Source: Minisyncoccota bacterium
GTDB lineage: Bacteria; Patescibacteriota; Minisyncoccia; Minisyncoccales; Minisyncoccaceae
Direction: 5' to 3'
NCBI GenBank assembly: GCA_041649895.1
Contig: JBAZMG010000006.1
Coordinates: 1-23,655 of the forward strand
DNA: 23,655 nt
In this document: positions 79 through 20,512 of the stretch, piece by piece
How the letters are laid out: each line of letters opens with the position of its first letter
How positions within the stretch are numbered: the stretch's first letter is position 1
The notes under the pieces: generated by a model
Seen by the model: only the letters and a program-made list of their open reading frames with translations
What the model was told of the DNA's origin: nothing
Database searches by the model: none
Made by a program: the position numbers and the translations under genes

Positions 79-152
79 CGGGATGTCATATAACGGCATT
101 ATGCAGGCTTCGGGAGTCTGTCATCTGGGTTCAATTCCCAGCATCCCGACCA
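79..152 (+). tRNA. tRNA-Pro (anticodon CGG), CCA encoded
   Basis: Manual cloverleaf: acceptor CGGGATG/CATCCCG (7 bp), anticodon stem CAGGC/GTCTG with loop TTCGGGA, T arm CTGGG-TTCAATT-CCCAG, discriminator A followed by CCA; 74 nt. Confidence 0.85.
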
Positions 153-380
153 TTTTCCAATCTCTGACCATCTGGGAATTGAAGGCGGAGGCGCGACGGC
201 GCCGAGCCGGGCCCGAGGAACACACCAGCAGGTGGGTATCCGAGGGCAATTCCCAGCATCCCGACTATTTTCCAGTCTCTGACTTTTTGGGAATTGAAGG
301 CGGAGTCGCGACGGCGACGAGCCGGGCCCGAGGAACACGCCAACAGGTGTGTATCCGAGGGCAATTCCCAGCATCCCGAC
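132..380 (+). repeat. 115-bp tandem repeat (2 full units plus a 19-nt third start); each unit begins with the tRNA-Pro 3' T-arm/acceptor sequence and contains a GC-rich hairpin module
   Basis: CAATTCCCAGCATCCCGAC at 132-150, 247-265 and 362-380 (period exactly 115); units near-identical apart from a few substitutions. Confidence 0.9.
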
Positions 381-3127: not shown

Positions 3128-3300
3128 GGGCTTAATCCTTTTACAAATGATTAAGGGCGGAGCCGACGGCTTGATTGTACTCAATCACGGGCGCAGGGTT
3201 GACGAACCCGAGCCGGGCCTGAGGAAATTTTCAACAGAAAATTATCTGAAGGACGAGCCGGGACTTGAGCAAAACTTCAACAGGAGCTTATATGAAGGAA
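3128..3300 (+). repeat. Cluster of GC-rich structured modules (candidate ncRNA or leader) just upstream of the pilin array
   Basis: Hairpins CTTAATC/GATTAAG (3131-3155), AGCC-GAC-GGCT (3161-3171), TGATTG-TACT-CAATCA (3172-3187), GGGTT-GACG-AACCC (3196-3209), AATTTTC-AACA-GAAAATT (3226-3243). Invariant linkers GGGCGGAG and CGAGCCGGGCCTGAG are shared with the 181-247, 18599-18660 and 20213-20277 copies. Confidence 0.6.
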
Positions 3301-3320
3301 TCCTCAAACATTGAAAAACA

Positions 3321-4205
3321 ATGAAAAAAACTATAAAAAAACAATTTGCGTTTACATTAATAGAACTGCTTATCGTTATCGCAATAATCGGAATACTCTC
3401 TGCGTTGATTATCGTGGGAATGAATAATGCAACCCAAAAAGCGACAATCGCCAAAGCGCAAGTATTTTCCAATTCACTCCGTAATTCTTTGATGTCTGGC
3501 TTGTTTGCCGAGTATAAGCTCGATGGCAACGCCAGCGACACGTGGGGGACACACACAGCCGGAACAATCAGCGGCGCATCATCTTATGCGTCCTGTATAC
3601 AAAATACTTGCTATAGTTTCGATAGCGATGATGATTATATTGAACTCGCGGATGTCGCGGATTTAAGAATGATAACCGGAGGGACTATTTCCGTTTGGAT
3701 TTATCCAAAAAGCTACGGAGAGGGCACTCTTGGAAGAATAATTGATAAGTCGTCTTCGGGCGATTCCGGTTTAGGTGGTTATACTTTTAGGAATAGTTCT
3801 CTTAATAGATTATTGTTCGTAATAAATGACGGCACCAACACACTTACTCAACAAAACGTAATAACTTATAATCAATGGCAACTTGTGACAACTACTTTTA
3901 ATGATTCCGGTAGAAAGATATACGTTAACGGAATTGATAAAACGGCATCCGGAGGTAATGAAACAGATCTACCTCCCGACAGTACGGGAATAGTGGTTAG
4001 AATTGGAAACTCCGCATATGGAACAACCAGAACTTTTGACGGATATATTGATGATGTTCAAATATATAATCAAGTAATTCCGACTTCCCAAATCCAACAA
4101 AATTACTACGCGGGACTCAACAAACTTTTTGCCAACAGGGGAGTGGAAATATCTGAATACCAACAATGCTTAACTGAATTATCAAACAATTACGCTCAAC
4201 AGTAA
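3321..4205 (+). CDS. Type IV pilin-like N-terminus + LamG/concanavalin-A-like domain protein (paralog 1 of 9, most divergent)
   Basis: MKKTIKKQFA|FTLIELLIVIAIIGILSALI prepilin-type motif with Glu+5; LamG-type hallmarks (YSFDSDDDYIEL, TISVWIYP, FDGYIDDVQIYN); shared C-terminal tail QNYYAGLNKLFANRGVEISEYQQ. Confidence 0.85.
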   Translation: MKKTIKKQFAFTLIELLIVIAIIGILSALIIVGMNNATQKATIAKAQVFSNSLRNSLMSGLFAEYKLDGNASDTWGTHTAGTISGASSYASCIQNTCYSFDSDDDYIELADVADLRMITGGTISVWIYPKSYGEGTLGRIIDKSSSGDSGLGGYTFRNSSLNRLLFVINDGTNTLTQQNVITYNQWQLVTTTFNDSGRKIYVNGIDKTASGGNETDLPPDSTGIVVRIGNSAYGTTRTFDGYIDDVQIYNQVIPTSQIQQNYYAGLNKLFANRGVEISEYQQCLTELSNNYAQQ

Positions 4206-4232
4206 TGTTTGGGTATTCGATACCCAAACATT
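4204..4232. repeat. Intergenic palindrome type 1 (13-bp arms) upstream of an A-type pilin gene
   Basis: AATGTTTGGGTAT-TCG-ATACCCAAACATT, starting inside the stop codon of paralog 1. Confidence 0.8.
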
Positions 4233-4237
4233 GAAAA

Positions 4238-5176
4238 ATGATGAATAGAAATATAAAAACAAATTTGGCATTTACATTGATAGAACTACTTGTGGTTATC
4301 GCAATCATCGGGATTTTATCTGCATTAATTATCATTGGGATGAGCTCGACAACACAGAAAGCTAGTGTTGCCAAGGCGCAGGTGTTTGCCAATTCTTTGC
4401 GCAATTCATTGATGGCGGATATGGTTTCTGAGTGGAAGCTTGATGGAAACACCAATGATACTTGGGCGGCCTCATTTGCAAACAACGGAACCTGGTGGGG
4501 AACGACCGCGCCGAATACCGTCGCAACCTATGGAACTGCGTCCGAATGCGTTTCCGGACAATGTATGGATTTTGATGGCGTGGATGATATGGTGGACTTT
4601 GGGAGCAACGCTTCTTTATCTATGGGAACAAAAGATCACACAGTCTCTTTATGGGTTAAGTTTGATAATGCGACCGCAACAGACATAGACACATTGGTTA
4701 TCTGTGGAGCAATGACGGGAACAGGGAAAGATGGGTATTGGATTACAAGACTTACCGATAGATTATACTTTTATTTTACTGATGGAGAAGGAGCAAATAC
4801 AAGAATTGCCGGCTATTTATCCGCAGCCGGAACATTAATTGCTAATAATTGGTATCAAATAACCGTAACTATGGATAGGGACGGAAATGTAACGGGATAT
4901 ATAAACGGAACATCGCAAATAAGTTGGGCTATTTCTCCTCAGCCTGGAGACGTACAAAATTCCATAAGCTTTCGAATGGGAGCTTTTACTACATCCCTGT
5001 ATCGTCTCGCCGGTAAAATGGATGAAGTGAGAATTTTTCACGCTATTACGACAATATCTCAAATAGAGCAAAACTACTTCGCGGGACTGAACAAACTTTT
5101 TGCCAACAGGGGAGTGGAAACATCAGAATACCAACAACGCTTAACTGAATTATCAAACAATTACGCACGGGATTAA
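4238..5176 (+). CDS. Pilin-like + LamG-domain protein (paralog 2, subtype A); real start may be the second ATG at 4241
   Basis: M(M)NRNIKTNLA|FTLIELLVVIAIIGILSALI; EWKLDGNTNDTW...CMDFDGVDDMVDFG...TVSLWVKFDNA...GKMDEVRIFHAI; preceded by palindrome 4204-4232. Confidence 0.85.
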   Translation: MMNRNIKTNLAFTLIELLVVIAIIGILSALIIIGMSSTTQKASVAKAQVFANSLRNSLMADMVSEWKLDGNTNDTWAASFANNGTWWGTTAPNTVATYGTASECVSGQCMDFDGVDDMVDFGSNASLSMGTKDHTVSLWVKFDNATATDIDTLVICGAMTGTGKDGYWITRLTDRLYFYFTDGEGANTRIAGYLSAAGTLIANNWYQITVTMDRDGNVTGYINGTSQISWAISPQPGDVQNSISFRMGAFTTSLYRLAGKMDEVRIFHAITTISQIEQNYFAGLNKLFANRGVETSEYQQRLTELSNNYARD

Positions 5177-5206
5177 AATGTTTGGGGGTTAAACCCCCAA
5201 ACATTT
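5176..5206. repeat. Intergenic palindrome type 2 (13-bp arms)
   Basis: AAATGTTTGGGGG-TTAAA-CCCCCAAACATTT. Confidence 0.8.
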
Positions 5207-5213
5207 AAAAACG

Positions 5214-6104
5214 ATGAATAGAAATATAAAAACAAAATTGGCATTTACATTGATTGAGCTACTTGTGGTAATTGCAATCATCGGGATTTTATCCGCTTTG
5301 ATCATTATTGGGATGAGCTCGACAACGCAGAAAGCAAACATTGCAAAATCACAAATATTTGCCAATTCTTTGCGCAATTCATTGATGGGGGACATGGTTT
5401 CGGAGTGGAAGCTTGACGAAGGAGCTGGCGATACAATATCTGATACGTGGGGCAGCAATAATGGAACAAAAGCTGGGGCAACATGGGAAGCAATAACAAC
5501 CAACTGCGTCTACGGCAAGTGCTTATCTTTTGATGGTGATGCTGATAATATAAATTTCGGAAATAAAACTGATTTTAATTTGGCTAGCACAAGCCACACT
5601 ATTTCGGTTTGGTTTAAAACAAGTACGACAACTACTGACCATATAATTAGTCGCTTTAACGGCGGAAGTCCCGGCGCTGGATATGTTATTTTTGTGTCCT
5701 CTGGAAAGGTTTGTTTTTCGGAAAGAGCAGACGGGGGAGACTTTCTTGCCCGCGATTCAGCGCTAACCTACAATGATAATTCTTGGCATTTTGTAACTTA
5801 CACGGTTGATATTTCTTTAAAAACAGGGAGGTTTTGCATTGATGGAACTTTTTTGCCCCTGGATACTTATACTGGAAACTTAATAAATTATAATAATAAT
5901 TTATATATCGGTGGACCACAGGTAGGATACTATTTTACTGGCCTAATAGACGATATACGCATATATGATGCCGCAATGCCAGCTTTCCAAATCAACGAAC
6001 AATATTACACCGGATTGAATAAACTTTTGGCAAACAGGGGAGTGGAAACATCTGAATACGAGCAAAGAATCGTAGAATTAAATTATAATTATGCAGAAAA
6101 TTAA
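5214..6104 (+). CDS. Pilin-like + LamG-domain protein (paralog 3, A-type leader, divergent body)
   Basis: MNRNIKTKLA|FTLIELLVVIAIIGILSALI; CLSFDGDADNINFG...TISVWFK...FTGLIDDIRIYDAAM; preceded by palindrome 5176-5206. Confidence 0.85.
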   Translation: MNRNIKTKLAFTLIELLVVIAIIGILSALIIIGMSSTTQKANIAKSQIFANSLRNSLMGDMVSEWKLDEGAGDTISDTWGSNNGTKAGATWEAITTNCVYGKCLSFDGDADNINFGNKTDFNLASTSHTISVWFKTSTTTTDHIISRFNGGSPGAGYVIFVSSGKVCFSERADGGDFLARDSALTYNDNSWHFVTYTVDISLKTGRFCIDGTFLPLDTYTGNLINYNNNLYIGGPQVGYYFTGLIDDIRIYDAAMPAFQINEQYYTGLNKLLANRGVETSEYEQRIVELNYNYAEN

Positions 6105-7047
6105 AATTAACGCATTTACATTGATAGAACTACTTGTGGTTATTGCAATCATCGGAATTTTATCTGCTTTAATTGTTATCGGGATGAGCTCGACAACGCA
6201 AAAAGCCAGTGTTGCAAAAGCGCAAGTATTTGCGAATTCTCTGCGCAATTCGTTGCTGGCGGATATGGTTTCGGAGTGGAAATTGGATGACGGGACTGGA
6301 AACAGCACCACAAAAGATTCCTGGGCTTCGGCTTTTGCCAATACGGGGACCTTGGGAACAGCGGCAGTAGGGGATGCAAGCGAGCCCACATGGCTAAGTA
6401 CCGGTTGTGTTTCCGGAAACTGTCTTTCGTTTGACGGCGCTGATGATTATGTTGATTTCGGAAATAATGCGTCCCTATCAATGGGAACTAAAGATCATAC
6501 TGTATCACTCTGGGTTAAGTTTGATAATGCAACAGCGCCCGCTCCTAATAATGCGGAAACGCTGGCTCGTTGTGGGGTCCAAGCTGCCGGAGTTGGGCGG
6601 GATGGATATTGGATTTATAGGACTGGGAGTAGTCTATTTTTTTATTTTTCTGATGGTTCGGCGGATAGCATAGGCGGCTCATTATCAGGGTCCGGGACAC
6701 TAATAGCTAACACTTGGTATAACATAGTTGTTGCACTCGATAGAGATATTTCTGCCTATATGTATATAAATGGAGTTAAACAAACAGGCTACTCATTAAA
6801 TATCGTACCACAAAATGGAGACGTACAAAATACATCCTTGTTAATGATTGGGGCAACTTCAGCTGGCTATGGTCGGCTTGACGGTCAAATGGATGAGGTA
6901 AGAATCTTTCACGCTATTACGACAATATCTCAAATAGAGCAGAACTACTTTGCCGGACTGAACAAACTTTTGGCAAACAGGGGAGTGGAAACGTCTGAAT
7001 ATGAGCAAAGAGTCGCGAATTTAACTTCAAACTATGCAAAGAATTAA
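6091..7047 (+). CDS. Pilin-like + LamG-domain protein (paralog 4, subtype B)
   Basis: MQKIKINA|FTLIELLVVIAIIGILSALI; EWKLDDGTGNSTTKDSWAS...CLSFDGADDYVDFG; ATG lies inside the previous gene's NYAEN-stop codons (14-nt overlap). Confidence 0.85.
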   Translation: MQKIKINAFTLIELLVVIAIIGILSALIVIGMSSTTQKASVAKAQVFANSLRNSLLADMVSEWKLDDGTGNSTTKDSWASAFANTGTLGTAAVGDASEPTWLSTGCVSGNCLSFDGADDYVDFGNNASLSMGTKDHTVSLWVKFDNATAPAPNNAETLARCGVQAAGVGRDGYWIYRTGSSLFFYFSDGSADSIGGSLSGSGTLIANTWYNIVVALDRDISAYMYINGVKQTGYSLNIVPQNGDVQNTSLLMIGATSAGYGRLDGQMDEVRIFHAITTISQIEQNYFAGLNKLLANRGVETSEYEQRVANLTSNYAKN

Positions 7048-7978
7048 AATTAACGCATTTACTTTGATAGAACTGTTGGTTGTAATAGCGATCATCGGTA
7101 TTTTATCTGCGTTGATTGTTGTGGGTATGAGCTCGGCGACGCAGAAAGCCAGTGTTGCAAAAGCGCAAGTATTTGCTAATTCTTTGCGGAATTCCTTAAT
7201 GGCGGATATGGTTTCCGAATGGAAATTAGATGACGGAACCGGAAACAGCACAACGAAAGATTCCTGGGCTTCGACTTTTACTAATACCGGGACACTGGGG
7301 ACTGCGACGGTAGGGGATGCAAGCGAGCCCACATGGCTAAGTACTGGTTGCGTTTCTGGAAACTGTCTATCTTTCGATGGAGCTGACGACTATGTTAATT
7401 TTGGCAATAACGCTTCATTGAGTATGGGAACAAAAGATCACACAATATCTTTATGGGTTGAATTTATTAATCCAACGGCACTGCAAGATGAAACAATGAT
7501 TCGCACGGGAGCTGGCGGTAGTGGAGCTGGCTATTGGATTTATAGATTTACCGGAACAAATAAATTAAGGTTTCTTTTTCATGACGGAGTTGGTTCGCAG
7601 GCATCCGGATATTTGTCGGCGGATGGCACATTAGTTGCTGGTATTTGGTATAATATAGCTATAATAATGGATAGGGATTCCAATGCCCAAGCTTATATAA
7701 ACGGGCAAATACAAACCAGTTACCCAATAGTTATATCTGGAAACCAAGGAACTATACAAAATGTTACAAATCTAATGGTTGGAGCGCAAGACGCGTCAAC
7801 ACGACGGCTTACCGGCAAAATGGATGAAGTAAAAATATTTCACGCAATACCGTCAATCTCCCAAATTCAACAAAACTATTACGCCGGACTGAACAAACTT
7901 TTGGCAAAAAGAGGGGTGGAAACATCAGAATATGAGCAAAGAGTCGCGGATTTAATTTCAAACTACGCAAAAGAATAA
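7034..7978 (+). CDS. Pilin-like + LamG-domain protein (paralog 5, subtype B)
   Basis: MQRIKINA|FTLIELLVVIAIIGILSALI; same architecture; 14-nt overlap with paralog 4. Confidence 0.85.
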   Translation: MQRIKINAFTLIELLVVIAIIGILSALIVVGMSSATQKASVAKAQVFANSLRNSLMADMVSEWKLDDGTGNSTTKDSWASTFTNTGTLGTATVGDASEPTWLSTGCVSGNCLSFDGADDYVNFGNNASLSMGTKDHTISLWVEFINPTALQDETMIRTGAGGSGAGYWIYRFTGTNKLRFLFHDGVGSQASGYLSADGTLVAGIWYNIAIIMDRDSNAQAYINGQIQTSYPIVISGNQGTIQNVTNLMVGAQDASTRRLTGKMDEVKIFHAIPSISQIQQNYYAGLNKLLAKRGVETSEYEQRVADLISNYAKE

Positions 7979-8005
7979 TGTTCGGGTATTCGATACCCAG
8001 ACATT
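7977..8005. repeat. Intergenic palindrome type 1 (one mismatch, one G-U)
   Basis: AATGTTCGGGTAT-TCG-ATACCCAGACATT. Confidence 0.75.
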
Positions 8006-8010
8006 GAAAA

Positions 8011-8955
8011 ATGATGAATAGAAATATAAAAACAAATTTGGCATTTACGTTGATTGAGCTATTGGTCGTAATAGCGATTATTGGTATTCTTTCGGCTTTG
8101 ATCGTTATTGGGATGAGCTCGACAACTCAAAAAGCTAGTGTTGCCAAGGGCCAAGTATTTGCTAATTCTTTACGCAATTCGTTAATGTCAGATATGGTCT
8201 CGGAGTGGAAATTGGATGGAAACACTAACGACACTTGGGCGGCCTCGTACGCGAACAACGGAACTTGGTCAGGTCCAACCGCGCCAAACACAGTCGCTAC
8301 TTATGGACCGGCAGCTGAATGCGTTTCCGGACAATGTATGGATTTTGATGGAGTGGACGATTTAGTTGATTTTGGAAATAACGCTTCGCTATCAATGGGA
8401 ACAAAAGATCACACAGTCTCTTTATGGATTAAGTTTGACAATGCAACAGCCCCACAACACGAAGTTTTGATTATTAGTGGCGGCAACATTGTTGCTCCTG
8501 GATATGCTGGTTATGATATTTTAAGATACACCGGAATGAGTCGACTATATGTTGAATTTTCCGATGGCTCGGCAAATAATGTCGGTGCCTATTTATCCGC
8601 ATCGGGAACATTAGTATCTAATATTTGGTATAATATAGTAGTAATTTTTGACAGAGACGGAGTTGCCAAGGCATATATTAACGGATTGTCACAGGCGGGA
8701 ACATTAAATATATCGGTTCAACCGGGCAATGTACAAAATATTTACAACTTAAGGTTGGGGGCGTGGACACCGTCCCAATTTCGTCTTGCTGGTAAAATGG
8801 ATGAAGTGAGAATATTTCACGCGATAACAACACTTTCCCAAATTCAGCAAAACTACTACGCGGGACTGAACAAGCTTTTTGCAAACAGGGGAGTGGAAAC
8901 ATCCGAATATCAACAAAGGATCGTAGAATTAAATTCGAATTATGCAAAGAATTAA
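8011..8955 (+). CDS. Pilin-like + LamG-domain protein (paralog 6, subtype A); start may be 8014
   Basis: M(M)NRNIKTNLA|FTLIELLVVIAIIGILSALI; N-terminal ~150 aa near-identical to paralog 2; preceded by palindrome 7977-8005. Confidence 0.85.
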   Translation: MMNRNIKTNLAFTLIELLVVIAIIGILSALIVIGMSSTTQKASVAKGQVFANSLRNSLMSDMVSEWKLDGNTNDTWAASYANNGTWSGPTAPNTVATYGPAAECVSGQCMDFDGVDDLVDFGNNASLSMGTKDHTVSLWIKFDNATAPQHEVLIISGGNIVAPGYAGYDILRYTGMSRLYVEFSDGSANNVGAYLSASGTLVSNIWYNIVVIFDRDGVAKAYINGLSQAGTLNISVQPGNVQNIYNLRLGAWTPSQFRLAGKMDEVRIFHAITTLSQIQQNYYAGLNKLFANRGVETSEYQQRIVELNSNYAKN

Positions 8956-9895
8956 AATCAACGCATTCACATTAATAGAACTACTTGTGGTTATTGCAAT
9001 CATCGGGATTTTGTCTGCATTAATTATCATTGGGATGAGCTCGACAACACAGAAAGCTAGTGTTGCCAAGGCGCAAGTGTTCGCTAATTCTCTACGTAAT
9101 TCATTGATGTCGGATATGGTTTCGGAGTGGAAGCTTGATGATGGGACAGGAAACAGCACAACGAAAGATTCCTGGGCTTCGACTTTTACAAATACGGGGA
9201 CCTTGGGAACCGCAGCAGTGGGGGATGCAAGCGAGCCCACATGGCTAAGTACTGGTTGCGTTTCCGGAAACTGTCTTTCTTTTGACGGCACCGACGATTA
9301 TGTTGATTTTGGGAGCAATGCGTCTTTATCTATGGGGACTAAAGACCATACTGCGTCATTCTGGGTTAAATTTGATAATGCGGTAGCAATAGAAAATAAT
9401 ACACTGATTAAATGCGGGGCCTTCGGCGCCTCTCTTGGATCAGACGGATACTGGCTTGTTAGATTAAACGGTACAAACAAACTATATTGTTATTTCTCCG
9501 ACGGAGAAACAACAACATTGCTTGGTAATTATTTATCCGCGGATGGTTCTTTGGTTGCCGATACTTGGTACAATATTGTTGTAATGTTCGACAGGAGCGG
9601 AGTGGCTCAAGCATACATAAATGGCGTAATACAATCAGGAACACTAAACATATCATCACAAACAGGAGACGTGCAAAATAGTAGAAGTTTTACTATTGGA
9701 GCCTGGTCAGCAACACTACATCGATCCGCTGGCAAAATGGACGAAGTACGAATATTCCACGCGATTACGACACTTTCTCAAATTCAACAAAACTACTTCG
9801 CAGGACTGAACAAACTTTTGGCTAATGGGGAAGTGGAAACATCAGAATACCAACAACGCTTAACTGAATTATCAAACAATTACGCACGGGATTAA
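8942..9895 (+). CDS. Pilin-like + LamG-domain protein (paralog 7, subtype B N-terminus with the paralog-2 type C-terminus)
   Basis: MQRIKINA|FTLIELL...; the last 64 nt of the CDS plus the downstream hairpin are 100% identical to 5113-5210. Confidence 0.85.
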   Translation: MQRIKINAFTLIELLVVIAIIGILSALIIIGMSSTTQKASVAKAQVFANSLRNSLMSDMVSEWKLDDGTGNSTTKDSWASTFTNTGTLGTAAVGDASEPTWLSTGCVSGNCLSFDGTDDYVDFGSNASLSMGTKDHTASFWVKFDNAVAIENNTLIKCGAFGASLGSDGYWLVRLNGTNKLYCYFSDGETTTLLGNYLSADGSLVADTWYNIVVMFDRSGVAQAYINGVIQSGTLNISSQTGDVQNSRSFTIGAWSATLHRSAGKMDEVRIFHAITTLSQIQQNYFAGLNKLLANGEVETSEYQQRLTELSNNYARD

Positions 9896-9925
9896 AATGT
9901 TTGGGGGTTAAACCCCCAAACATTT
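9895..9925. repeat. Intergenic palindrome type 2 (identical to 5176-5206)
   Basis: AAATGTTTGGGGG-TTAAA-CCCCCAAACATTT. Confidence 0.8.
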
Positions 9926-9931
9926 AAAACA

Positions 9932-10870
9932 ATGAATAGAAATATAAAAACAAAATTGGCATTTACATTGATAGAATTATTGGTCGTGATTGCAATCATC
10001 GGGATACTTTCGGCTTTGATCATTATTGGGATGAGTTCGACGACACAGAAAGCTAGTGTTGCCAAATCGCAGGTGTTTGCCAATTCATTGCGCAATTCTT
10101 TGATGGCGGATATGGTTTCAGAATGGAAATTGGACGGGAATACTAACGATACTTGGGCGTCTTCAAATGCGAACAACGGAACGTGGTCGGGACCAACCGC
10201 GCCGAATGCCGTCGCTACTTACGGGACGGCAGCCGAATGCGTCTCCGGACAATGTATGGATTTTGACGGTGTGGATGATGTAGTTGATTTTGGAAATAAC
10301 GCTTCGTTATCAATGGGAACAAAAGATCACACAGTCTCTATTTGGGTTAAATTCGATAACGCATCACCCCCAACAGAAGAAGAAACATTAATTTTTTGCG
10401 GCGGAACAGTGGCCGCGACAGAAGGCTATTGGATCAGGAGACAAATTGGAGGAACAGGAATTTATTTTTGTTTTAACGATGGCTCGGCAACAAGGGCTAA
10501 CGGTGCTTTATCAGCGAACGGAACTTTAATTAATAATATTTGGTATAATATAGTAATAACAATGGACAGAGATTCTAATGCCCAAGCATATATAAATGGA
10601 CAAAAACAAACTGGTTATGTTGTTAGTCTCTCCTCTTGGCAAACCGACATACAGAATACTTATAATTTCCAAATTGGTGGATTTGGAGCTGTTTATACAA
10701 TGGCGGGAAAAATTGATGAAGTAAGAATATTCAATGCGATAACAACACTTTCTCAAATTCAACAAAATTACTTTGCAGGACTGAACAAACTTTTTACCAA
10801 CAAGGGAGTGGAACCGTCTGAATACCAAAAAGAGGTCACGAATTTAATTTCAAACCATGCAAAGAATTAA
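9932..10870 (+). CDS. Pilin-like + LamG-domain protein (paralog 8, subtype A)
   Basis: MNRNIKTKLA|FTLIELLVVIAIIGILSALI; preceded by palindrome 9895-9925. Confidence 0.85.
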   Translation: MNRNIKTKLAFTLIELLVVIAIIGILSALIIIGMSSTTQKASVAKSQVFANSLRNSLMADMVSEWKLDGNTNDTWASSNANNGTWSGPTAPNAVATYGTAAECVSGQCMDFDGVDDVVDFGNNASLSMGTKDHTVSIWVKFDNASPPTEEETLIFCGGTVAATEGYWIRRQIGGTGIYFCFNDGSATRANGALSANGTLINNIWYNIVITMDRDSNAQAYINGQKQTGYVVSLSSWQTDIQNTYNFQIGGFGAVYTMAGKIDEVRIFNAITTLSQIQQNYFAGLNKLFTNKGVEPSEYQKEVTNLISNHAKN

Positions 10871-11816
10871 CAAAGCATTTACATTAATTGAGCTATTGGT
10901 TGTGATAGCGATTATTGGTATTCTTTCGGCTTTGATCGTTATTGGGATGAGCTCAACAACACAGAAAGCCAGTGTTGCCAAGGCGCAAGTGTTTGCGAAT
11001 TCTCTGCGCAATTCGTTGCTGGCGGATATGGTTTCGGAGTGGAAATTGGATGACGGGACTGGAAACAGCACCACAAAAGATTCGTGGGCTTCGGTTTATG
11101 CCAATACGGGAACATTGGGAACAGCGGCGGTGGGGGACGCGAGCGAGCCAACATGGCTAAGTACCGGTTGCGTTTCCGGAAACTGCCTTGATTTTGACGG
11201 CGCTGACGATTATGTTGATTTTGGAAGCAATGCGTCTTTATCTATGGGGACTAAAGACCATATTGCGTCATTCTGGGTTAAATTTGATAATGCAGTGGCG
11301 GGCGCGCAACCCGAAACGCTAATAGTTTGCGGTTCAGTTACCGGTGGGGCGACTGGAGACGATGGTTATTGGATTGTACGCTATCAAGGAACAAGCAAAA
11401 TAAGAGGATATTTTTCTGATGGTTCGGCGGCATATATCGGCGGAGATTTATCTGCTAATAGTGTTTTTGTCGCTAATACTTGGTATAACATAGTAACAAC
11501 TTTTGATAGAGATGGAGTTGTTCAGGCATATGTTAATGGATTAAAACAAACGGGTTATTCAATAAACATTGCTCCTCAACAAGGAGATGTACAAAATTAT
11601 ATGAATTTGCGAATTGGAGCCTATTCGGCAACCGGACACCGTCTCGATGGTCAAATGGATGAGGTAAGAATCTTTCACGCCATAACAACGCTGTCTCAAA
11701 TAAAGCAAAACTATTACGCAGGACTGAACAAACTTTTTGCCAAAAACTCCCTAAATAGGGTAGAATATGAGTATAGGATGGCGGAATTACAAACTTCATC
11801 TTTAGCAAACAAATGA
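10857..11816 (+). CDS. Pilin-like + LamG-domain protein (paralog 9, subtype B, divergent C-terminal tail)
   Basis: MQRINKA|FTLIELLVVIAIIGILSALI; 14-nt overlap with paralog 8; its TGA stop overlaps the next gene's ATG (ATGA at 11813-11816). Confidence 0.85.
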   Translation: MQRINKAFTLIELLVVIAIIGILSALIVIGMSSTTQKASVAKAQVFANSLRNSLLADMVSEWKLDDGTGNSTTKDSWASVYANTGTLGTAAVGDASEPTWLSTGCVSGNCLDFDGADDYVDFGSNASLSMGTKDHIASFWVKFDNAVAGAQPETLIVCGSVTGGATGDDGYWIVRYQGTSKIRGYFSDGSAAYIGGDLSANSVFVANTWYNIVTTFDRDGVVQAYVNGLKQTGYSINIAPQQGDVQNYMNLRIGAYSATGHRLDGQMDEVRIFHAITTLSQIKQNYYAGLNKLFAKNSLNRVEYEYRMAELQTSSLANK

Positions 11817-18498: not shown

Positions 18499-18734
18499 GC
18501 AAACATTTATTTAGACTGTATTATTAGGACGCTTCTCGCAAGAAAATTTTCACCAGAAAATTTGCTGAGCGCTTAATTATTTATTTTAAAATAATTAAGG
18601 GCGGAGGGCCGACGGGCCCGAGCCTGTCCTGAGCGCAAATTCAACTGAATTTGACGCGAAGGAGTGCAGACGCCGGCGACGGCCGGCGGATGACACGTCG
18701 AACGAATAATGCAGTCTAAAAGCTAAATGTTTGC
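18499..18734 (+). ncRNA. 236-nt GC-rich structured element closed by a ~27-bp inverted repeat (candidate ncRNA or MITE-like element) just upstream of tRNA-Arg
   Basis: Arms GCAAACATTTATTTAGACTGTATTATT (18499-18525) and AATAATGCAGTCTAAAAGCTAAATGTTTGC (18705-18734). Internal hairpins at 18544-18563, 18572-18599, 18606-18619 (GGGCC-GACG-GGCCC), 18636-18653, 18672-18687 (GCCGGC-GACG-GCCGGC). Confidence 0.55.
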
Positions 18735-18816: not shown

Positions 18817-18841
18817 CAGCAAATTTTGCTGACGCAAAATA

Positions 18842-18943
18842 TTGCAGTAATTAGTAGTTTGTAGTTTGTAATTAGGGTAAGGAAATTATTAGGATAACAA
18901 AATTTGCTCCCAAAGTACCAACTACTCACACAAAGTACAAAAG
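18842..18943 (+). repeat. tRNA-linked ~100-nt repeat, copy 1 (long imperfect hairpin)
   Basis: TTGCAGTAATTAGTAGTTTGTAGTTTGTAATTAGGGTAAGGAAATTATTAGGATA...TTTGCTCCCAAAGTACCAACTACTCACACAAAGTACAAAAG; the TTTGTAG heptad arm pairs with the CAAAGTAC arm. Confidence 0.8.
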
Positions 18944-18945
18944 CG

Positions 18946-19066
18946 TTGCAGTAATTAGTAGTTTGTAGTTTGTAATTAGGGTAAGGAAATTATTAGGATA
19001 TTTTAAAGTAAAATTTATTCCCAATCCGCCAGCTGGCGGAACAAATTACTCACACAAAGTACAAAA
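18946..19066 (+). repeat. tRNA-linked repeat, copy 2 (carries an extra CCGCCAGCTGGCGG hairpin)
   Basis: First 54 nt identical to copy 1; 3' arm ACAAATTACTCACACAAAGTACAAAAA. Confidence 0.8.
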
Positions 19067-19072
19067 ATTTTT

Positions 19073-19427
19073 ATGTTTGATTTTGAAAAATTAGACGTCT
19101 ATAAAAAAGCAAAACAACTAAATAAAAATGTTTTGCGTTTCCTGAAAAAACAACAAACAAATAGATACATATCTTAGAGACCAGCTAAAAAGAGCTTCCA
19201 TTAGTATTGTCATAAACATAGCGGAGGGGAGTGGGAAATTTTCAAAACCGGACAAAAAGAACTTTTACACAACTGCCCGCGGGTCCACGTATGAGTGTGT
19301 TTCTCTGCTTGAAATTATATGCGAAGAAGGCTATATTTCCAAAGAAATCTTTGATATTTTTTACAAAAACTTCGAAATTATCTCAAAAATGCTATTAGGA
19401 CTAATAAATAGCCAAAACAAGGCTTAG
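19073..19427 (+). pseudogene. Four-helix-bundle protein gene (23S rRNA intervening-sequence protein family), disrupted by a 1-nt frameshift
   Basis: Frame A: MFDFEKLDVYKKAKQLNKNVLRFLKKQQTNRYIS-stop (TAG 19175-19177). Frame B from 19179: DQLKRASISIVINIAEGSGKFSKPDKKNFYTTARGSTYECVSLLEI...KMLLGLINSQNKA-stop. Removing one T near 19172 would give NRYILRDQLKRAS. Confidence 0.75.
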
Positions 19428-19431
19428 TTGC

Positions 19432-20003: not shown

Positions 20004-20076
20004 GCCCCGTTAGCTCAGTTGGTAGAGCAGGAAGCTCTTAACTTCAAGGTCGTGGGTTCGAATCCCTCACGGGGCA
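20004..20076 (+). tRNA. tRNA-Lys (anticodon CTT)
   Basis: Acceptor GCCCCGT/ACGGGGC, D arm GCTC-AGTTGGTA-GAGC, anticodon loop CTCTTAA, T arm GTGGG-TTCGAAT-CCCTC (one T-T mismatch; one G-A mismatch at the top of the anticodon stem); 73 nt. Confidence 0.8.
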
Positions 20077-20104
20077 CAGCAAATTTTGCCCCCGAGGCAA
20101 AATC

Positions 20105-20205
20105 TTGCAGTAGTTTGTAATTTGTAGTTTGTAGTTTGGGTAAGGAAATTATCAGGATATATAAAATTTGCTCCCAAAGTACAAATTACACACACAAAGT
20201 ACAAA
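20105..20205 (+). repeat. tRNA-linked ~100-nt repeat, copy 3
   Basis: TTGCAGTAGTTTGTAATTTGTAGTTTGTAGTTTGGGTAAGGAAATTATCAGGATA...TTTGCTCCCAAAGTACAAATTACACACACAAAGTACAAAG; homologous to 18842-18943. Confidence 0.8.
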
Positions 20206-20296
20206 GGATTCGAAGGCGTAGCCACGACGGTGGCGAGCCGGGCCCTGAGAATTTTTCAGCAGAAAAATATCGAAGGGCGAATCCCTCACGGGGCAC
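20206..20296 (+). repeat. GC-rich structured module fused to a 19-nt duplicate of the tRNA-Lys 3' end
   Basis: GGATTCG (20206-20212) pairs with CGAATCC (20278-20284). Hairpins GCCAC-GACG-GTGGC (20221-20234) and ATTTTTC-AGCA-GAAAAAT (20251-20268). CGAATCCCTCACGGGGCAC at 20278-20296 duplicates 20059-20077. Confidence 0.8.
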
Positions 20297-20512
20297 CACT
20301 TCGCTCCGACCAATCGGAGCTACGCGGTGCAAGCACAGCCCAGCTTAAAGTTGAATTGACGTTTTAGAAAAGCGAAGTGGTCCCGCGAAGCCTTGGCGAA
20401 GTAGGGGCGAAGTGGGACAGCACCCTTACATACAAAAACTTAATAATGAACAGACACCCATCTCGGTATAAAACCTGGGATGAGGCGCATAACAAATGTA
20501 ATAATTAAAAAT

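Follow-up and report, generated by a model that had tools for sequence, protein, structure and literature searches.

Protein-less structured modules and duplicated tRNA 3' ends: a possible family of mini-elements at tRNA genes of CPR-like bacteria

The tRNA-Lys locus

The window analyzed here is a stretch of 23,655 nucleotides with bacterial genes (PlsY, FakA/DegV, PNPase, pilins) of the kind usually found in CPR-like organisms with small genomes. The tRNA-Lys(CTT) gene and the region downstream of it are organized as follows:

20004..20077, + strand: intact tRNA-Lys(CTT), predicted by ARAGORN and matched by the Rfam tRNA model with 67 bits; its last 19 nt are copy 1 of a direct repeat, X
20078..20205, + strand: spacer F of the Lys unit, with a hairpin (GCAAATTTTGCC..GGCAAAATCTTGC) followed by an AT-rich repeat; no credible ORF
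20206..20214, + strand: arm (IR) GGATTCG plus AA, the reverse complement of tRNA positions 54-62 (TTCGAATCC) and the 5' strand of a closing helix, P1
20213..20278, + strand: conserved 66-nt module, Lys copy; covariance-model match of 65.5 bits (E 1e-13), fold z -4.4
20278..20296, + strand: second copy of X, covering the 3' end of tRNA-Lys from C56 to the discriminator plus one base; exact repeat

The repeat CGAATCCCTCACGGGGCAC, that is, the last 19 nt of tRNA-Lys(CTT), starts at C56 of the T-loop, ends one base beyond the discriminator and is present in exact form only at 20059-20077 and 20278-20296. An earlier note on this DNA had pointed to this duplication of the tRNA 3' end. None of the shuffles of the window reproduced the 19-nt repeat, and it is not a chance duplication; we read the copy at 20278-20296 as a displaced 3' fragment of tRNA-Lys. 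The arm GGATTCG (20206-20212) can pair throughout with the first seven nucleotides of the second repeat copy, CGAATCC (20278-20284), of which it is the reverse complement. The module between the arm and the second X copy contains two hairpin arms. In P2, GGC/GCC is followed by a G-N-A/G-A internal loop and by a stem of 5 bp that is capped by a GACG loop. In P3, a tandem GA/GA and 2-3 bp separate the basal stem from a bulged A, beyond which a stem of 7 bp carries an AGCA loop.

The spacer between the tRNA and the arm is unusually long at the Lys locus (128 nt), with a unit length of 219 nt from X to X. Both this unit length and the 201-nt interval owe their size to the extra AT-rich repeat in the spacer, which recurs after tRNA-Arg (18831-18905, 18935-19009; 18899-18941), beside the putative remnant of a gene for a four-helix-bundle protein. 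The same note had described the 201-nt insert as devoid of ORFs, and indeed the sole reading frame in this interval is a spurious, TTG-started one of 70 aa.

Other copies in the window

The covariance model identifies five complete modules in the window, at 182-247, 297-362, 3188-3253, 18598-18663 and 20213-20278. The earlier note had counted seven, but the two isolated GACG hairpins at 3161-3171 and 18672-18687 turn out to be pieces of composite copies. Apart from the Lys locus, the copies and the associated tRNA gene are arranged as follows:

79..152, + strand: tRNA-Pro(CGG), CCA encoded; X = 132-150
172..265, + strand: Pro unit a, with arm CTGGGAATTG (172-181), AA, module (182-247) and X copy CAATTCCCAGCATCCCGAC (247-265)
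288..380, + strand: Pro unit b, with arm TGGGAATTG (288-296), AA, module (297-362) and X copy (362-380)
3141..3303, + strand: composite copy not associated with a tRNA, directly upstream of the first pilin-like gene (3321)
18529..18690, + strand: copy that lacks a tRNA duplicate and precedes tRNA-Arg(TCG) by 80 nt

The claim that the same GC-rich module is found at tRNA-Pro holds, and the module is in fact present there twice, units a and b forming a tandem with a period of 115 nt; the arm CTGGGAATTG is complementary to the duplicated CAATTCCCAG. In the composite copy, an AT hairpin and a truncated outer P2 (GGCGGAG-CC-GACG-GC) precede a hairpin (CTTGATTGTACTCAATCA) and the complete inner module (3188-3253), after which come CGAGCCGG and a second P3-like hairpin, so that there are two P3-type arms in total; the same architecture recurs at the tRNA-Thr unit in L099. 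In the copy upstream of tRNA-Arg, the module (18598-18663) comes after a P3-like hairpin and an AT hairpin (18572-18599) and before an additional GACG hairpin (18672-18687), and no second copy of the tRNA-Arg 3' end is present in the window. The two additional hairpins of this copy, GAAAATTTTC-ACCA-GAAAATTT (18529-18573) and GCCGGC-GACG-GCCGGC (18672-18687), were missed by the covariance model and may be permuted or partial copies of the module.

Distribution of the module

A search pattern that matches all five window copies retrieved 41 metagenome loci, from digesters and activated sludge, and gave 0 matches in viral contigs. One further copy is located in a contig of a metagenome-assembled genome (MAG). 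With the covariance model (R1), the collection amounts to 119 copies in 43 DNA stretches, namely five in the window, one in the MAG contig and the rest in the 41 metagenome loci. The neighboring genes are housekeeping ones, and identical 63-nt modules stand beside different tRNA genes (Lys, Val and Leu). No earlier description of the module or the insert was found in Rfam or in the searchable literature.

The MAG contig, L070, shows an unusual arrangement (7211-7440) in which tRNA-Arg(TCG) is followed by a module with a duplicated fragment of the tRNA-Lys type. In the related contigs L086 (4589-5700) and L123 (1842-3100), the Arg and Lys genes own one unit each; judging from these sequences, L070 looks as though tRNA-Lys had been lost between two modules, either by deletion or by collapse of the assembly. 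L070 bears the label Pacearchaeota in its record, and the window, with the same module family, has bacterial genes; therefore this label does not establish an archaeal origin of the element. The bacterial genes of the window likewise rule out an archaeal split, permuted or intron-containing tRNA.

Fold and covariation

All module copies in the window can be folded into the closing helix P1 and the two hairpin arms, with z scores from -3.3 to -6.4. Across the collection, P2 is built of the same elements as in the Lys copy (GGC/GCC, G-N-A/G-A internal loop, 5-bp stem) and ends in an invariant GACG loop, whereas in P3 the basal stem measures 3-4 bp, the bulged A belongs to the 3' strand and the loop reads A(C/G/A)CA, the remaining elements (tandem GA/GA, 2-3 bp, 7-bp stem) being those of the Lys copy. 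In a gap-free alignment of 28 distinct cores, 97.6% of the cells hold standard pairs, compared to 20-52% when the partners are slid, and both partners are changed in 13 of the 21 pairs (105 cells of this kind, compared to 32 in shuffles). In the larger set of 83 distinct copies, 95.6% of the stem cells are Watson-Crick, and among the 1618 cells there are 25 G.U and 13 A.C. We conclude that the module is conserved as the fold of a single strand and that its covariation is real. Given the paucity of G.U cells, the stems indicate neither RNA nor DNA as the folded strand.

The earlier note was thus right that the internal stems covary. The linkers that it considered invariant and single-stranded are, however, mostly paired, as GGC/GCC in P2 and as CC(U)/(A)GG, which closes P3 next to the tandem GA/GA. 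Its suggestion of a functional RNA fold or a ribozyme-type core fares similarly: the conserved, covarying fold is there, but nothing points to a ribozyme core, no patterns of hammerhead, HDV, twister or similar ribozymes were found in the module, and the Rfam 15 covariance models detect only tRNAs in the window (E<1) and in three of the other loci (L116, L096 and L118; E<0.1), so that no Rfam family is matched by the module. The junction of P1, P2 and P3 is almost without unpaired bases. Several specific motifs were considered and rejected. Strings resembling the hammerhead CUGA(N)GA..GAA vary between copies (CCGAGGA in the Pro copies) and are located in the internal loop of one helix, off the junction; a K-turn or box C/D motif would share the tandem G.A, but the 3-nt bulge is missing; and the upstream complement to the acceptor 3' strand that a tRNA-like structure with a full acceptor stem calls for is not seen.

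The arm and the identity of the tRNA

About 90 copies (class A) are located downstream of a tRNA gene on the same strand, all of them in the sense of the tRNA. The first unit lies 14-80 nt after the tRNA, and units either stand alone or follow one another every 100-165 nt, with up to 3-4 per array. The tRNAs involved represent at least 18 species: Arg x3, Lys, Glu x2, Leu x3, Ser x3, Thr, Ala, Gly, Val, Ile, His and Pro. Most of the class A modules are followed by an exact copy of their own tRNA from C56 to the discriminator. [quoted passage not shown]

When the closing helix is compared with the neighboring tRNA for the copies found with the covariance model, the identity of the arm tracks that tRNA across the 18 species. 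The mean length of the contiguous helix formed by the arm is 8.7 pairs with its own tRNA and 7.2 with the adjacent copy of X, compared to 3.9 when the arm is set against 3' ends from other tRNA species; some arms form 10-12 pairs, reaching past the T-stem into the acceptor strand. The proposal of the earlier note that the closing helix is tuned to the associated tRNA is borne out to this extent, but the partner that fits better is the live tRNA rather than the duplicate. Where the two copies of X differ (L086, L091, L092, L097, L098, L102, L124), the arm matches that of the tRNA better, and in the Glu unit of L096 it pairs with the tRNA's own X at 12 of 12 positions and with the adjacent X at 9. 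This preference suggests that the insert supplies the new 3' end of the tRNA whereas the old end decays, and the closing helix of the integrated state may not be the one under selection.

Complementarity is not always exact: some arms pair through G.U wobbles, and a recurrent variant has GAG in place of UCG, which yields a G-C pair and tandem G.A against C56-G57-A58. Such solutions suggest selection on the fold rather than copying. The bases that follow the discriminator in the X copies vary (CTA, CAC, ACA, TTT and others), CCA is only occasional, and the GCACCA behind the Lys duplicate is not representative. Since CCA is not conserved after the copies, their source is gene DNA or a precursor rather than mature tRNA; for the same reason, we reject a primer-binding site or a SINE-like retro-copy of mature tRNA.

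Insertion polymorphism

The earlier note had likened the direct-repeat geometry to attL/attR around an insertion. This idea is supported, as the tRNA-His genes of two of the loci provide an empty and a filled site. The flank ATATTGACAATA... follows directly after tRNA-His in L110 and after the distal X in L118, where the insertion is a block of approximately 150 nt flanked by the duplicated 19 nt. The number of units at orthologous tRNAs is variable (His 0,0,0,1,3; Glu-TTC 0,0,2; Ser-CGA 0,0,1,2,2), some of these numbers being inflated because the counts include modules downstream of close neighboring tRNAs. The 'empty' alleles could equally be deletions between direct repeats. The duplication spans at least 19 nt, with the left end fixed at C56 and a variable right end that often extends into the 3' trailer up to the terminator.

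The module can also interrupt a T-loop. In L096, the intact tRNA-Arg(GCG) gene is the last in a series, preceded by two full pseudo-copies in each of which the T-loop is interrupted by a module in the opposite orientation, and the same antisense interruption appears, by eye, in a tRNA-Trp fragment of L089. Copies not associated with a tRNA (class B) have an extra hairpin, CTTGATTGTAATCAATCAAG, and lie inside the loop of palindromic repeats of the type ATGTTTGGGAG..CTCCCAAACAT; thus, the module tends to occupy hairpin loops. The class B flanks in L084, L085, L087, L093 and L105 are intergenic clusters of palindromic repeats (GAATGTTTGGGAGTTAAACTCCCAAACAT and variants, ..TTTAGGGG..CCCCTAAACAT), some of which hold a module in the loop.

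Within the arrays, the proximal unit is better preserved in L090 (Arg), L102 (Ser-CGA), L115 (Leu) and L121 (Ala), but not in L109 (Val) and L116 (Leu), a pattern that lends weak support to the model in which the insert provides the new 3' end.

As for the enzyme, no integrase, recombinase, transposase or reverse transcriptase was identified in the 42 loci among the ORFs of at least 200 aa (25 most frequent of 130 families), and no recombinase recurs among the most frequent families of the 92 ORFs from these loci (again the top 25); such an enzyme could be encoded at any other place in the genome. The only YxDD candidate for a reverse transcriptase near the copies proved to be DnaB.

A proposed mini-element targeting the T-loop

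So what kind of entity could combine a conserved fold, an arm matched to the adjacent tRNA and a duplicated tRNA 3' end, with no gene of its own? The best reading of the Lys locus appears to be that it is one copy of a family of protein-less, structured mini-elements in CPR-like bacteria. More specifically, we propose, with a probability of about one half, that the units are non-autonomous, structured, protein-less mini-elements that integrate at the T-loop of tRNA genes and restore the gene. Under this hypothesis, the unit would integrate through an exchange of strands within TTCGA, a conserved stretch of the T-loop. [quoted passage not shown] The free form would probably be single-stranded (DNA or RNA), with the arm, the module and X folding as a three-way junction the closing helix of which reproduces the target sequence. 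The GNA/GA loop, the GACG loop, the tandem G.A and the bulged A might then serve as handles for an enzyme supplied in trans. We infer a single-stranded intermediate because a double-stranded circle of 100-150 bp would be physically awkward, and with such an intermediate the conserved fold gains a role. What speaks against mobility is that a new target tRNA requires a new X, spacer and arm all at once, for which conservative recombination falls short. Neither a free or circular form nor an autonomous parent was seen.

A bolder version, which we regard as improbable, is that the arm, the module and X form a self-contained, nucleic acid-guided insertion device. A small folded RNA or single-stranded DNA would read the T-loop of a tRNA gene or precursor through the arm, and an enzyme of the host or one acting in trans would assist in joining it at C56. 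If so, a guide of approximately 10 nt would program the target in an element of no more than about 150 nt without a protein gene of its own.

If the units are mobile, they would rank among the smallest site-specific insertion elements known to us, and the combination of a target-matched arm with a conserved fold in place of a gene would be unusual. They would offer a simple system to study how such an element finds and restores an essential gene in bacteria with very small genomes, and which enzyme, of the host or of a helper, is borrowed for this purpose. By adding tRNA-like fragments and tandem repeats beside many tRNA genes, the units can mislead tRNA annotation, genomic island finders and the assembly of CPR genomes.

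Comparison with known systems

A T-loop class (sublocation) of tRNA integration sites was reportedly distinguished by Williams in 2002. The islands and prophages of Islander-type geometry that target tRNA genes by means of tyrosine integrases share with the present units the insertion into the 3' part of the gene, the restoration of the latter, the repeat of the displaced fragment from the T-loop and tandem accretion. The restored tRNA with a displaced 3' repeat is found here at 18 tRNA species and in the L118/L110 pair. In contrast, the tyrosine or serine integrase that such an island carries is not there, the units being 100-220 nt long without an ORF. Unlike the ends of islands, moreover, the insert is approximately 100-200 nt in size and carries no cargo, and it combines a covarying 66-nt fold with an arm complementary to the target. 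A restored gene together with a displaced fragment is the geometry that has been described for integrase-borne islands (PMC4383910).

The insert also resembles CIMEs (cis-mobilizable or non-autonomous integrative elements) and MITE- or REP-like repeats in being protein-less and multi-copy and in having a structured core with compensatory changes. These elements are likewise protein-less and multi-copy, are presumably moved in trans, and keep palindromic or structured cores by compensatory change. CIMEs, however, are kilobases long, and MITEs and REPs are bounded by terminal inverted repeats, duplicate a short target (of fixed length in the case of MITEs) and rebuild no tRNA 3' end. By contrast, the inverted arm of the insert matches the target tRNA and not a second end of the element, and the duplication is at least 19 nt long, anchored at C56 and variable at the right end.

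A model for the arm, the module and X might be found, by analogy only, in the folding of the integron attC and the CTX-phage attP (XerCD) sites. In these, a single strand folds such that the hairpin duplex imitates the target, the structure is conserved over the sequence, and unpaired bases are marks for the protein. The target of the insert would be the T-loop of a tRNA, and neither an integron integrase nor a Xer site motif was found.

Finally, the bridge RNA of IS110 and the tigRNA of TIGR-Tas share with the units the organization of a structured RNA flanked by two short segments that match the target. The tigRNA arrays, which consist of structured RNAs with two short target-matching segments, occur in parasitic bacteria (PMC12045711). 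TIGR units, however, are 36 nt long, have two spacers of approximately 9 nt that do not covary, and adjoin the gene for the Nop-domain protein Tas (PMC12045711), whereas the present units are 100-165 nt long with flanks that are fully complementary to each other, so that a TIGR array can be dismissed. No Tas-like or IS110 gene is found near the copies among the 25 most frequent of the 130 neighbor families.

Alternative explanations

The alternative that survives best, although we consider it unlikely, is that the module is not mobile but is a functional non-coding RNA of the tRNA 3' trailer. Such an RNA would be co-transcribed with the tRNA or transcribed from the spacer, its arm would pair with the T-arm sequence, and it would have a role in tRNA processing, quality control or protein binding, with the duplicated X supplying the closing helix and a single-stranded, acceptor-like tail. 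The strong covariation is what one would expect of such an RNA, as are the conserved unpaired bases typical of RNA motifs (tandem G.A, bulged A), the G.U and G.A solutions in P1 and the orientation of all class A copies in the tRNA sense. Furthermore, orthologous positions are kept in several genomes: the order Pro(CGG)-module-Val(CAC), for example, is shared by the window, L111 and L124. On the other hand, orthologous tRNAs can do without the units and carry different numbers of them; several spacers contain a terminator-like hairpin with a T-run directly upstream of the arm, the adjacent X decays while the arm still matches the tRNA, antisense and non-tRNA copies exist, and no Rfam family is matched. 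Should this explanation nevertheless be correct, the modules would represent a new, widespread class of RNAs tied to tRNA genes.

Quite improbable, in our view, is mobility mediated by RNA. In this scenario, the arm would act as an internal guide on positions 54-66 of the precursor tRNA, and the 3' end of the module would be joined at C56 in a ribozyme-like or protein-assisted reaction, giving a chimeric RNA of arm, module, X and trailer that would be reverse-transcribed and would recombine into the tRNA locus via the shared X and spacer. The ends of the duplication, fixed at C56 on the left and variable on the right, often reaching into the trailer up to the terminator, fit this scenario, and so do the non-conservation of CCA and the complementarity of the arm, including the AA, to T54-N66 of the live tRNA. 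In one Leu array, three different arms pair with the same X via G.U wobbles, which is RNA-type pairing, and CPR genomes are rich in retroelements. However, the loci lack a reverse transcriptase within the scope given above (ORFs of at least 200 aa; 25 most frequent of 130 families), and a 66-nt fold of two hairpins, with almost no bases at the junction and no known ribozyme pattern, is an unlikely catalyst. Furthermore, the distal copy in the Ala loci keeps the hairpin but not the T-run that this model predicts, and G.U pairs are rare in the stems.

The possibility that the units are remnants of larger, integrase-bearing islands, of which internal deletion has spared one end (where the module would be a region of arm-type sites) and the displaced fragment of the tRNA, is consistent with the geometry of islands (PMC4383910) and with the unrelated AT-rich repeat in the Lys spacer, which elsewhere flanks the putative four-helix-bundle gene remnant, but is highly improbable because all of the approximately 90 units are small, no locus has genes between the tRNA and the module, and independent deletions would not repeat the compact layout that recurs at 18 tRNA species and in tandem.

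Additional observations

Several other repeats are present in the window. The AT-rich repeat (GCAGTAATTAGTAGTTTGTAGTTTGTAATTAGGGTAAGGAAATTATTAGGATA... followed by AAAATTTGCTCCCAAAGTAC..CACACAAAGTACAAA; 18831-19065 and 20094-20205) is found twice at tRNA-Arg and once at tRNA-Lys, and CAGCAAATTTTGC directly follows the discriminator at both of these tRNAs. Directly after the AT-rich repeats downstream of tRNA-Arg, there is a frame at approximately 19074-19430 (..IAEGSGKFSKPDKKNFYTTARGSTYEC..) that seems interrupted and that, by eye, we take to be related to the four-helix-bundle '23S rRNA intervening sequence protein' family. A 16-nt palindrome, TCCGCCAGCTGGCGGA, at 19026-19041 of the window is inserted, in L111, inside the duplicated tRNA-Pro fragment after the module, and may be a separate small palindromic insertion element. 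More repeats are located 3' of the Lys unit (20297-20420) and 3' of tRNA-Val (487-600), namely CACTTCGC...GCGAAGTGG with several copies of GCGAAGT(A/G)GG, as well as CCCCGTACTAGAG...CTCTACTACGG long-range inverted repeats.

The region 3321-11816 encompasses nine tandem paralogous genes for pilin-like proteins of approximately 295-320 aa, which have an N-terminal prepilin-type methylation motif and carry a Laminin_G_3/ConA-like lectin domain; the mutual DNA identity of these genes is 60-83% over long stretches.
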